A DNA stretch of 54,153 nucleotides from a bacterium (GTDB taxonomy: Bacteria > Patescibacteriota > Minisyncoccia > Sungbacterales > GWA2-42-14), in the NCBI GenBank assembly GCA_030649305.1, contig JAUSFV010000005.1, positions 1 to 54,153 on the forward strand, written 5' to 3'. Positions 1 to 40,928 of this stretch are shown piece by piece (the first letter of the stretch is position 1; each line of letters opens with the position of its first letter). The position numbers were made by a program, and so were the translations under genes. The notes under the pieces are model-generated. The model had not been told where the DNA came from and did no database searches. It saw only the letters and a list, made by a program, of their open reading frames with translations.

Positions 1-290
1 CGTGAGACAGGTTGGTCTCCTATCTACTGCAGGCGTCGATACGTGAAGGGCGTCGTTCCTAGTACGAGAGGACCGGAACGAACGAACCTCTGGTCTACGA
101 GCTGTCCTGCCAAGGGCACCGCTCGGTAGCTATGTTCGGACGGGATAAGCGCTGAAAGCATCTAAGTGCGAAGCCCATCCTAAGATTACGTATCATAAGA
201 TCCGTGAGAGATGATCACGTTGATAGGCCGCAGGTGGAAGCGCAGCAATGCGTTAAGCCGAGCGGTACTAATAGATCAATTTATTGTTAC
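1..290 (+). rRNA. rrl: 23S rRNA, 3' portion (runs off window start; 3' end approximate)
   Basis: Conserved domain V/VI motifs CGTGAGACAG, CCTAGTACGAGAGGACCGG (sarcin-ricin loop), GCTGAAAGCATCTAAG, CGTTGATAGG and GGTACTAATAG; helix 98 region is short. Confidence 0.97.
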
Positions 291-315
291 CCCGTTCCTA
301 GTGTTGAATGTGCTC

Positions 316-354
316 GCCCGCCAAAGTTTTTGTTTTGCAAAAATTTAGGCGGGC
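316..354. terminator. Hairpin downstream of 23S (GCCCGCC...GGCGGGC arms), possible terminator or processing stem
   Basis: gcccgcc (316-322) pairs with ggcgggc (348-354), with an A/T-rich inner stem. Confidence 0.5.
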
Positions 355-39069: not shown

Positions 39070-39182
39070 GTTTACGGCTTCATTCATGAAGCCGTTTTTT
39101 TTATTTAAAATTACCCGAACGGGCAAATACGGACTTGATTTCTTTCGTTTTTTCGGGTTTAATAGGAGTATTCTTGTTGTGT

Positions 39183-39326
39183 GGCCCCATTTTGTAACTG
39201 TGGTTACGCTGTAGACAAAATCGGAGCTAGTAGTTAGGACATGTGGTTCTTTCACCCACCCAAATTTTTATGGCCTCATCGTCTAGTGGTCAGGACGTAT
39301 GGTTCTTTCACCCTCCCACCTTTTAT
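39183..39326 (+). pseudogene. Two degenerate tandem copies of the tRNA-Glu 5' half
   Basis: Unit B (39272-39307) is 29/36 identical to the tRNA 5' half; unit A is more decayed and interrupted by a 30-bp hairpin insert (39191-39220). Confidence 0.75.
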
Positions 39327-39398
39327 GCCCCTGTCGTCTAGTGGTTAGGACGCATGGTTCTCATCCATGCAACCGGAGTTCGATTCTCCGCAGGGGCG
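39327..39398 (+). tRNA. tRNA-Glu (CTC)
   Basis: Acceptor gcccctg/caggggc; anticodon arm catgg-ttCTCat-ccatg; T arm cggag-ttcgatt-ctccg; CCA not encoded. Confidence 0.95.
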
Positions 39399-39439
39399 TA
39401 GGAAAAGGTGGGCGGGCAAGTCTATAAAACCGGGGCACG

Positions 39440-39538
39440 CCCCCACACTCATATTTTTTTCGGAATCAAAACCCCATTTCCATTTATTAATAAATTTTGG
39501 ATTCTATCAATCCAATGACAAAAGAATGAGTGTGGGGG
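39440..39538. repeat. 99-bp element with 13-bp perfect inverted ends
   Basis: cccccacactcat ... atgagtgtggggg with AT-rich interior. Confidence 0.75.
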
Positions 39539-39566
39539 TGAAATTCCCCGTGAGGCCATTTTTTTT

Positions 39567-40928
39567 ATGTCTCTCAAATCATTTCTTAAAAAATTATTTC
39601 CCGAATCGTGGTTTGGGTTCTATCACTGGTGCATGGCGTGGTGCGCCGCTTTTTATTTTGGATTCCCCTCACGGCGTATGACGGTCGTCGGGGTTACCGG
39701 CACCAAGGGCAAAACCTCAACCGCGGATTTTATCTGGTCTGTACTGACTGCGGGGGGATATAAAACGGGCTTGGTGAGCACGGCGCATTTCAGAATCGGA
39801 GAAAAAGAATTTTTAAATCCGTATCATATGACGATGCCGGGGCGTTTTAAGCTTCAGAGATTTTTGCGAACAATGCAGAAGGCCGGATGCACGCATTGCG
39901 TGATTGAAACAACGTCGGAAGGTATCAAGCAATTCCGGCACAAGGGGATTGCGTATGACGTTGCTGTCTTTACCAACCTATCACCTGAACATTTGCAGTC
40001 GCATGGAGGAAGTTTTGAGCAATACAAAAAAGAAAAAGGGAAATTATTCGCATTACTTGCATCATCTCCGCAAAAAACCATCTGCGGTGCCGCAACTCCG
40101 ATTCCAAAAACAACATTCCAACATTCTGCAGAATGTTGGAATGTTCCGAAAGCGATTATCGTAAATTACGACGACCAAGCGCGAGATTATTTTTTACATT
40201 TTCCCGCGGATGTTAAAAAAACATTCGGTTTGGGAGACGGCGCGAATATTCGTGCGGAACAGATTCGCGATACGGACGATGGCGTTCTGTTTAGTGTGGG
40301 CGGCAGAGAATACGCCTTGCATATTCTTGGACGTCTCAATGCGCAAAACGCGCTTCCTGCGCTGGCACTCGGTGAAATTTTTGGTATTTCGTACGAAGCT
40401 ATGCAAAAAGGGCTTGCGGGGCTTCATGTGATTCCGGGACGAATGGAAGAAATCAAAGAGGGGCAGAATTTTCGCGTGTTTGTGGATTACGCGCATGAGG
40501 GAAAAAGCATGACGGCGTTGTTGGAAGCCGCGCGGGGTATTGTTGCGAAAACCGGAGGCCGCGTTATTGTGCTTCTTGGCGCGGAGGGCGGAGGGCGCGA
40601 TACGGCAAAGCGCCCTACCATGGGTCGGCTTGCGGGTGAGCGCGCCGATTATGTGGTGGTTAGTAATGTTGACCCATATGAAGATGATCCGAAAGAAATT
40701 TGTGAGGATATCGCGCGCGCCGCCGAAACAGCCGGAAAACGACGAGGAGAGAATCTTTTTGTGATTGAAGACCGGCGTGAAGGAATTCGAAAGGTGCTAT
40801 CGCTTGCGCGCTCAGGAGATGCGGTGTTTATCACAGGTAAGGGCGCCGAACAATCAATGGTGATTAAGGGTAAAAACATTCCGTGGGATGATAGGGTTGT
40901 GGTGCGAGAGGAACTTGCTCGTTTTTAG
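39567..40928 (+). CDS. murE: UDP-N-acetylmuramyl-tripeptide synthetase (MurE-type Mur ligase)
   Basis: GVTGTKGKTST, IETTSEG, FTNLSPEHL..H, PGRME, VDYAHE, GGGRD..KR, EDP and GKGAE motifs. Confidence 0.9.
   Translation: MSLKSFLKKLFPESWFGFYHWCMAWCAAFYFGFPSRRMTVVGVTGTKGKTSTADFIWSVLTAGGYKTGLVSTAHFRIGEKEFLNPYHMTMPGRFKLQRFLRTMQKAGCTHCVIETTSEGIKQFRHKGIAYDVAVFTNLSPEHLQSHGGSFEQYKKEKGKLFALLASSPQKTICGAATPIPKTTFQHSAECWNVPKAIIVNYDDQARDYFLHFPADVKKTFGLGDGANIRAEQIRDTDDGVLFSVGGREYALHILGRLNAQNALPALALGEIFGISYEAMQKGLAGLHVIPGRMEEIKEGQNFRVFVDYAHEGKSMTALLEAARGIVAKTGGRVIVLLGAEGGGRDTAKRPTMGRLAGERADYVVVSNVDPYEDDPKEICEDIARAAETAGKRRGENLFVIEDRREGIRKVLSLARSGDAVFITGKGAEQSMVIKGKNIPWDDRVVVREELARF
40112..40145. repeat. 34-bp perfect palindrome in frame in murE
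   Basis: aacattccaacattctg|cagaatgttggaatgtt; encodes TFQHSAECWNV. Confidence 0.95.

Follow-up and report, generated by a model that had tools for sequence, protein, structure and literature searches.

A nested tRNA-Glu locus

Few bacterial genes are as conserved and compact as those for tRNAs. Here, we describe a locus in which an intact tRNA-Glu gene lies within the remains of older tRNA-Glu copies, an arrangement referred to below as a nest. The window, the whole 54,153-nt stretch of DNA that was analyzed and to which all coordinates without a contig label refer, is contig C42 of a genome of approximately 1.02 Mb (54 contigs, 94.7% complete). Other contigs of this genome carry labels of the type C##, while loci in relatives and the genomes of those relatives are labeled L### and G###, respectively.

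A single tRNA gene was identified in the window using ARAGORN and Rfam (RF00005), namely, tRNA-Glu(CUC) at 39327-39398 (61.7 bits), which is also the sole tRNA-Glu(CUC) that ARAGORN found across the genome. Upstream of it are two diverged 35-nt 5' halves, A (from 39183) and B (from 39272), each followed by approximately 20 nt of similar spacer. A sequence-only reading of this stretch had described tandem decayed 5' halves of tRNA-Glu that recur with a 55- to 56-bp period and lose their similarity to the intact gene inside the anticodon loop, with 26 of 28 positions identical in unit B, and both observations were borne out. Tandem Repeats Finder reported an array at 39227-39361 (period 55, 2.4 copies, 82% matches, score 179), and a repeat search returned 42 nt at 83% with a spacing of 56 and 41 nt at 85% with a spacing of 55. 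When the intact tRNA was compared with its own flanks by BLAST, unit B matched over 28 nt at 93% and unit A over 24 nt at 83%, with both matches terminating at the middle anticodon base. The hairpin said to interrupt the oldest unit is present at 39190-39220, although its length is 31 nt and not 30. The description of the halves was correct but incomplete, as a 3' half matching B, designated B', lies downstream of the intact tRNA. The features of the nest are as follows.

39183-39189, plus strand: acceptor 5' strand of unit A (GGCCCCA), the outermost and presumably oldest tRNA-Glu remnant.
39190-39220, plus strand: hairpin mini-insert of 31 nt (TTTTGT...ACAAAA) that separates positions 7 and 8 of unit A.
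39221-39250, plus strand: positions 8 to 35 of unit A, comprising the D arm, the anticodon-stem 5' strand and the loop to TTCT (83% identity to the reference copy).
39251-39271, plus strand: left arm of a cassette in the A-B spacer, TTCACCCACCCAAATTTTTAT, belonging to the 'CCCAAATTTT' variant; a matching right arm is absent.
39272-39306, plus strand: unit B, the 5' half (positions 1 to 35) of the outer tRNA-Glu, with the sequence GGCCTCA TC GTCT AGTGGTCA GGAC G TATGG TTCT; 26/28 identical to the intact gene and paired with B' in the minimum free energy structure.
39307-39326, plus strand: left arm of the cassette in the spacer from B to the inner tRNA, TTCACCCTCCCACCTTTTAT, forming an inverted repeat with 39403-39416 (14 nt, 93%).
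39327-39398, plus strand: inner, intact tRNA-Glu(CUC).
39399-39420, plus strand: right cassette arm, TAGGAAAAGGTGGGCGGGCAAG, of which 14 of 16 positions pair with the left arm; this is the sole right-arm core in the window.
39421-39435, plus strand: first part of B', with T38, CTATA (pairing with TATGG), the variable AAAC and the T-stem 5' strand CGGGG.
39436-39545, plus strand: 110-nt hairpin element in place of the T-loop of B', with arms CCCCCACACTCAT and ATGAGTGTGGGGG (inverted repeat of 22 nt, 86%), an AT-rich center and no tRNA cargo.
39546-39558, plus strand: second part of B', with the T-stem 3' strand CCCCG, the acceptor 3' strand TGAGGCC (7/7 with GGCCTCA) and the discriminator A.
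39559-39566, plus strand: run of eight T residues directly past the outer acceptor stem, a possible transcript end of the tRNA, which abuts the ATG (39567) of a Mur-ligase-family gene.

As the units differ from one another by 15 to 17%, the nest is not a stutter of the assembler. Positions 39300-39647 recur unchanged in a Logan contig of a public run, and the stretch that leads from the end of B through arm, tRNA and second arm into B' is present in contigs from two other metagenome samples, which show 4 and 11 differences. None of the public-run contigs independently spans the part from A to B. The public runs containing the sequence are groundwater metagenomes.

A second tRNA-Glu cloverleaf around the intact gene

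The fold of 39170-39570 has a free energy of -150.4 kcal/mol, compared with -109.7 +/- 5.8 kcal/mol for shuffled sequences (z = -7.0), and in this fold the pairing partner of unit B lies beyond the intact tRNA, on its downstream side. B and B' together are a complete second tRNA-Glu cloverleaf around the inner gene, with 7/7 acceptor pairs, 5/5 anticodon-stem pairs (one G-U), a 4-nt variable region, 5/5 T-stem pairs and a discriminator base; this architecture arose in 7 of 300,000 shuffles of the downstream 222 nt. The anticodon loop of B+B' contains the left arm, the whole inner tRNA and the right arm, while its T-loop is the hairpin element at 39436-39545. Thus, the suggestion that a full second tRNA-Glu had once stood here and simply eroded was half right: B+B' was once a complete gene, but it appears to have been split by an insertion carrying the present gene rather than by plain erosion.

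Unit A has the same left junction as B (TTCT|TTCACCC...). Neither a plus-strand TGGGGCC, which would complement its acceptor strand, nor a second right arm was found anywhere in the window, and thus the 3' side of A has been lost. The outermost 3' half is likewise absent from L006 and L030, both of which are three-tier loci.

Small hairpin inserts in the outer halves are not restricted to the window. A hairpin homologous to that at 39190-39220 occupies the same place in L006, members of the family also lie within T-loop inserts of outer halves in L029 and L032, and stand-alone matches were identified in G016 and G027. On C35 of the analyzed genome, a complete tRNA-Ile(TAT) is enclosed within the T-loop of an outer tRNA-Ile, and the arms of this nest, CCCCCACACTCA and TGAGTGTGGGGGTGAAA, recur in the empty element that replaces the T-loop of B'. 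Separately, a conserved insert of approximately 90 nt with three hairpins was observed in the D-loop of several outer halves of different tRNA types (L005 at 1610-1700, L007 at 1393-1500, the B tier of L030, and C24 of the analyzed genome upstream of 1683).

Arms and junctions

The arm motifs TTCACCCNCCC... and ...GGGNGGGCAAG wrap tRNA-Glu, -Gly, -Ala and -Met genes within broken copies of the same type, and a variant that lacks TTCA and ends in CAGG wraps tRNA-Arg. Across 14 loci, the two arms pair over 13 to 19 bp with compensatory changes: position 4 is T-A in seven loci and G-C in four, positions 9 and 10 are C-G or A-T, and L032 has TTTCG/CGAAA where TTTTG/CAAAA is found elsewhere. The left arm at 39307-39326 is identical at 20 of 20 positions to arms around Glu, Met and Ala tRNAs in G021, which belongs to a different family, and these identical arms adjoin outer halves in an advanced state of decay. 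The arm between A and B (CCCAAATTTT) and that between B and the inner tRNA (CCCACCTTTT) are two variants that form separate lineages elsewhere, which argues for two events in the window and not for one local duplication.

At the junction, the outer loop retains positions 32 to 35 and 38, and the CA at positions 36 and 37 is replaced by TTCA...CAAG. The same exchange occurs in the Met nest, at the CA of the anticodon. The loop of the Arg nest contains no CA, and its insert cleanly separates positions 35 and 36. TTCA...CAAG corresponds to TTCAAG with its CA doubled, and TTCAAG is the sequence of positions 34 to 39 of tRNA-Glu(UUC) (as in L028 and on C29); this identity suggests that the junction may be a fossil of the first target.

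Nests at other tRNA genes and in other genomes

A 401-nt region was used as a BLAST query against 60 relatives, and in many of these the match extended beyond the tRNA itself. The same junctions and arms around tRNA-Glu(CUC) were found in at least five other genera and three other families of the order (for example, L008, L011, L015, L032 and L033); L007 is the same, except that the anticodon-stem base before TTCT is A and not G. The shared layout consists of a 5' half ending in GG TTCT, TTCACC(C/T)NCC..., the inner tRNA-Glu(CUC), ...GG(G/A)NGG(G/C), then CAAG, CAGG or CGAG and one nucleotide, followed by the outer anticodon-stem 3' strand, T arm and acceptor strand. The outer anticodon stems pair in every case, e.g., CTTGG/CCAAG in L011 and CTAGG/CCTAG in L008. 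Tier order varies, as the window has GGCCTCA as the outer and GCCCCTG as the inner acceptor sequence, whereas L008 has GCCCCTA as the outer and GGCCTCA as the inner one.

Nests were also identified at tRNA-Glu(UUC) (L028, where the outer cloverleaf is perfect), tRNA-Gly(CCC) (L031, where three 3' halves follow one another downstream), tRNA-Ala(UGC) (L029), tRNA-Arg(UCU) (L035, with the arms lacking TTCA and ending in CAGG) and tRNA-Met(CAT) (L030, with three tiers, the greatest depth seen), and in each of these the inner tRNA lies within halves of the same amino acid type. In the analyzed genome, tRNA-Ala(UGC) on C20 is nested with the same arms, tRNA-Pro(GGG) is also nested, and 13 of the 59 tRNA genes have flanking partial copies. 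The combination of an intact inner tRNA, mutually pairing arms and a broken host loop of the same type was thus found at several tRNA genes and in several genomes.

The arms are present in further settings. In G004, they are inverted in the D-loop of a tRNA-Ala(GGC) and enclose another tRNA-Ala(GGC). In G061, they nest an RNA-like sequence of approximately 75 nt, GGTCACAGAGCAGGCACTTACATAAGGACAAATTTTGGAGTCAACCCTCTGTGGCC, inside its own copy (L082, G061:C16, approximately 225-345, minus strand; arms TTCACCC.../...GGGCAAG, at CA in a loop); this sequence has no Rfam or ARAGORN match, and together with its arms it recurs in five further genomes (G052, G050, G048, G056 and G043). The G004 and G061 cases indicate that the cassette is not tied to one site.

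Among 185,579 species genomes, an exact 18-nt arm core was found in 31 stretches. Approximately 19 genomes with the core belong to the Candidate Phyla Radiation (CPR), within the Sungbacteria, Parcubacteria, Liptonbacteria, Falkowbacteria and Azambacteria; the approximately 12 scattered matches outside the CPR fit chance expectation, which was estimated at approximately 17. Eight occurrences were checked, and in all six with an ARAGORN call the core lies no more than approximately 130 nt from a tRNA gene, abutting it in three. A strict two-arm pattern matched one of 400 other genomes of a phylum sample, and the arm family is therefore concentrated in this order. Nesting thus recurs at many tRNA genes of this ultra-small groundwater CPR lineage. 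Full-text literature searches returned no description of nested tRNA genes in CPR/Patescibacteria. New here are the Glu case, a defined arm family common to at least five tRNA types and one non-tRNA RNA, the inverted use of the arms in a D-loop, the CA to TTCA...CAAG rule and the contrast between conserved arms and decaying outer halves.

This distribution bears on a simple origin of the units by slippage or unequal crossing-over, in which a 55-bp leader plus tRNA positions 1 to 35 would have been duplicated locally and then decayed, as the sequence-only reading had also proposed. The head-to-tail order and the period of 55 to 56 are what such duplication would produce, and it would account for a unit A with no 3' partner, as well as for the missing outermost 3' halves of L006 and L030. 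However, B' past the intact gene is left unexplained, so that the proposal is largely refuted for B, and so are the right arm pairing with the left arm, the two arm variants in the spacers, the same wrapper on Gly, Ala, Arg and Met tRNAs and in D- and T-loops, and the 3' halves of L031, which are stacked without 5' halves. We consider local duplication very unlikely.

State of the outer copies and a possible role of the arms in RNA

The outer copies look dead. In the window, the 110-nt insert destroys the T-loop of B', and outer halves elsewhere show truncations, mispairs, D-loop or T-loop inserts of 60 to 110 nt and hairpin mini-inserts. With TTCA...CAAG in place of bases 36 and 37 (CA), the Glu anticodon loop of B is not restored by any single excision; single-cut excisions in the window, read by hand, yield CUU, CUA or CAA anticodons and never Glu. 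The outer gene was also considered as an intron-containing tRNA and rejected, as ARAGORN in intron mode made no call even with the T-loop element trimmed to every possible 7-nt loop. In Rfam scans at permissive thresholds, the window region and seven related nests matched at the inner tRNAs only, with no known ribozyme or intron found. Searches for EndA (PF01974) and RtcB (PF01139) gave no match in the 94.7%-complete genome, with positive controls responding, and splicing of the archaeal type was rejected accordingly.

These results stand against a reading in which the insert is an intervening sequence handled in RNA, with the arm helix marking a segment for removal or holding RNA pieces together, the outer tRNAs still functional products, and the nest a way of packing several tRNAs into one transcript. 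Such a role would fit the strong conservation of the arms in both sequence and pairing, with compensatory changes, and their presence in either orientation and in various loops, as would be expected of a motif recognized by its structure. Some outer cloverleaves are perfect, as in L028; exact removal of the insert between positions 35 and 36 restores CUUCUAA in L035 (Arg), and removal in L006 restores UUUUCAU. Furthermore, the analyzed genome yielded no uninterrupted gene for tRNA-Asn(GUU), nor did a search for an interrupted sole copy recover one: both this tRNA and tRNA-Gln(UUG) were sought on all contigs with ARAGORN, the Rfam tRNA model and an anticodon-arm pattern and were not found, which at 94.7% completeness may reflect missing sequence. 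However, besides the unrestorable Glu loop, the 110-nt T-loop of B', the decay of many outer halves and the lack of EndA, RtcB or a known ribozyme, unit A has no 3' half at all, and the outer copies are redundant, being of the same isoacceptor as the inner gene. A role of this kind is considered unlikely.

Probable serial insertion of a self-rescuing tRNA cassette

The nest is probably best explained by serial insertion, at the DNA level, of a self-rescuing tRNA cassette, with the innermost gene alone being functional. The cassette would be approximately 115 bp long and consist of a complete tRNA-Glu(CUC) between mutually pairing arms, TTCACCCTCCCACC... and ...GGTGGGCGGGCAAG. It would have entered the anticodon loop of an older tRNA-Glu, B+B', directly past anticodon position 35. 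B+B' in turn, within an earlier cassette with a different arm variant, would have entered the anticodon loop of the still older A, the right arm and 3' half of which would since have been deleted. The outer halves would then be decaying relics that still gain hairpin inserts, such as those at 39190-39220 in A and 39436-39545 in B'. Insertion could be tolerated even at a single-copy essential tRNA gene because the cassette supplies a working replacement for the gene that it breaks.

All tiers are probably cotranscribed, with the inner tRNA presumably read from upstream of the outermost tier. The gene upstream of the nest ends in a terminator at 39074-39095; a promoter scan found no plus-strand consensus promoter between this terminator and unit A, and a weak candidate was read by hand (TTGATT at 39135-39140, 17 nt, TTTAAT at 39158-39163). 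By virtue of the arm helix, the inner tRNA would fold independently of its surroundings and could be released by RNase P and 3' processing.

Insertion of a cassette is supported by the use of different loops and of both orientations, by empty arm pairs and by the redundancy of the outer copies with the inner isoacceptor. Several observations weigh against it. No filled and empty pair of the same locus was seen; insertion as DNA is thus inferred and not observed. Of 80 metagenome loci anchored on the Mur-ligase gene, 60 were scanned and none had an upstream tRNA-Glu, and so synteny is not conserved and no empty site could be found. The junctions lack a clean target-site duplication, as TTCA...CAAG replaces CA, and cassette insertion does not account mechanistically for the constant match in type between outer and inner tRNAs. 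A search of public runs returned no RNA run containing the stretch. The arms are far better conserved than the adjoining outer halves, a sign that the arms are still under selection, possibly as RNA. Finally, none of the integrase, GIY-YIG and Y1 candidates was identified as a mobilizing enzyme: PF00589 matches in the genome are confined to C35:10738-11256 and C3:30073-30570, with none on the window contig; none of the five small GIY-YIG open reading frames (ORFs) of the genome lies near tRNA pieces; and Y1_Tnp, found in 46 of 62 genomes of the order and in three copies in the analyzed genome, is absent from the nest-rich G025, G023 and G038.

A link to the Y1 transposase found no support, as its presence does not correlate with nest abundance. 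In most genomes of the order, Y1_Tnp domains (IS200/IS605 or RAYT-like) occur in unusually long ORFs of 220 to 290 amino acids; those of the analyzed genome are at C4:1624-1941, C23:700-954 and C37:4215-4469. A GIY-YIG link likewise found no support in the analyzed genome, where these ORFs do not adjoin tRNA pieces; in G026, a GIY-YIG ORF lies 126 nt downstream of tRNA-Glu(CUC), where there is no nest. Small stand-alone GIY-YIG ORFs of 80 to 130 amino acids are numerous in every genome of the order.

The enzyme searches also concern a further reading, in which the halves are scars left by tyrosine-integrase elements whose crossover took place in the anticodon loop but with the geometry reversed, a possibility that the sequence-only reading had raised in the form of an opposite-geometry attachment site. 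The breakpoint does lie in the anticodon loop, where some integrase families are known to cross over. However, no tyrosine recombinase is present in the window, the two in the genome being on other contigs, and there is no kilobase-sized element between the repeats, only an arm of 20 to 22 bp between relic and gene. The geometry is not that of an attachment site either, as 5' halves lie upstream and one 3' half downstream and a whole gene, not a 3' fragment, is supplied; moreover, the 18-mer arm core had no match in viral contigs. Integrase scars are hardly credible as the origin of the nest.

The conservation of the arms is the main evidence that the nests involve more than decay and could reflect either selection on the element or a function of the RNA. 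In a further reading, the arms are a lineage-specific leader/trailer processing stem of stable-RNA genes, and nests arose, with no dedicated mobile element involved, when paralogous or incoming tRNA genes sharing this stem recombined or underwent gene conversion. Three findings would be accommodated: throughout the order the arms adjoin many tRNAs, as well as an unrelated small RNA, and do so in both orientations; they are conserved beyond the neighboring relics; and no transposase is linked to them. However, stems located outside a gene do not explain arms inside loops, at a fixed spot past base 35 or in D- and T-loops, and empty arm pairs exist within loops (39436-39545), making this origin decidedly unlikely. 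It is possible, though doubtful, that the hairpin-armed inserts belong to a previously unrecognized bacterial system that recognizes structure, either an RNA processing module or structure-guided insertion or homing. In its RNA form, the system would be an intervening sequence or processing module of a new class, acting in the precursors of stable RNAs, with the arm helix selected as RNA and the outer pieces cut, held or rejoined; in its DNA form, it would be a new mechanism aiming a tRNA-bearing hairpin cassette at the loops of cognate tRNA genes.

If serial cassette insertion is correct, a small element that breaks an essential single-copy tRNA gene while replacing it would represent a new route of persistence for selfish DNA in ultra-reduced genomes, and it would explain many orphan tRNA fragments in CPR genomes that confuse annotation, attB prediction and tRNA counting. 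The nests would record successive replacements of tRNAs by diverged, possibly foreign copies and so could trace horizontal exchange in uncultured lineages. Should the arms function as RNA instead, they would constitute a new kind of bacterial intervening sequence.

Neighboring genes and other tRNA genes of the genome

Neighbors in the window include genes for CysRS, CorA, the Mur-ligase-family protein, HPF, SpeD and SpeE. A perfect 34-nt palindrome, AACATTCCAACATTCTGCAGAATGTTGGAATGTT, is located at 40112-40145 within the Mur-ligase-family ORF, where it is read through in frame, and it gave spurious microRNA matches in Rfam.

Elsewhere in the genome, the anticodon loop of tRNA-Met(CAT) at C3:29264-29582 (minus strand) is broken by a 246-nt insert that contains TTCAGAGACTATAA and resembles a group I intron; the tyrosine-recombinase gene at C3:30073-30570 adjoins this interrupted tRNA. 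Three tRNA genes, tRNA-Glu(UUC) (C29:22806-22883), tRNA-Lys(CUU) (C35:12220-12292) and tRNA-Leu(GAG) (C24:911-998), have a homologous, GC-rich structured element of approximately 120 to 130 nt downstream, past which lies an 18- to 20-nt duplicate of the tRNA 3' end from T-loop to discriminator, the region spanning approximately 150 nt. The GC-rich element and the 3' duplicate are a second kind of tRNA-associated insert, with a 3'-fragment geometry. Two identical 87-nt tRNA-Trp(CCA) genes (C8:55-141 and C16:45697-45783) have an extra hairpin in the variable region, and a normal 71-nt tRNA-Trp is also present on C33.

Comparison with known systems

The halves resemble those of archaeal bulge-helix-bulge (BHB) introns and of split and tri-split tRNAs (Nanoarchaeum, Caldivirga), where two tRNA-Glu 5' halves share one 3' half: in both settings the genes are broken in or beside the anticodon loop, have GC-rich complementary flanks and include tRNA-Glu isoacceptors. 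Unlike those systems, the nest belongs to a bacterium (transfer-messenger RNA is present) with no EndA or RtcB match, and its halves are redundant with the intact gene between them. The predicted junction, with a 2x1 internal loop, a 3-bp helix (CUU/AAG), a 3x1 loop and the long arm helix, is not a 3-4-3 BHB. Group I introns of bacterial tRNAs are likewise inserted in the anticodon loop, but the nest has no ribozyme core or Rfam intron match, its insert consists of a helix and a whole tRNA, and in the window no correct loop can be obtained by joining the exons on either side.

Homing-endonuclease cassettes, such as phage T4 SegB, and the mobile ORF and double-hairpin elements of fungal mitochondria are also selfish DNA entering conserved RNA genes, and they spread by break repair with coconversion of flanks. 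In contrast to the homing-endonuclease cassettes, the cassette described here has no nuclease gene inside or adjoining it and no defined cleavage site. Miniature inverted-repeat transposable elements (MITEs) and the repetitive extragenic palindromic (REP) sequences and REPINs that RAYT (Y1) transposases mobilize in trans are small, nonautonomous, hairpin-forming and dispersed in multiple copies; the cassettes are similar in these respects, with MITE-like terminal inverted repeats that form a hairpin and many dispersed copies. They differ in carrying a functional tRNA as cargo, in lying inside loops of cognate tRNAs and in having no clear target duplication.

The tRNA-targeting integrative elements (islands, prophages and archaeal integrative plasmids) insert into tRNA genes, often at the anticodon or T-loop, with the tRNA sequence of the element keeping the gene working and the displaced fragment remaining as a direct repeat, as would be the case here. 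The cassette differs in its size of approximately 115 bp, in having no recombinase gene and in supplying a whole tRNA rather than a 3' segment; both old halves are displaced, so that copies become nested up to three deep, and inverted-repeat arms are present. The nest is classed with tRNA-targeting, target-regenerating mobile DNA.

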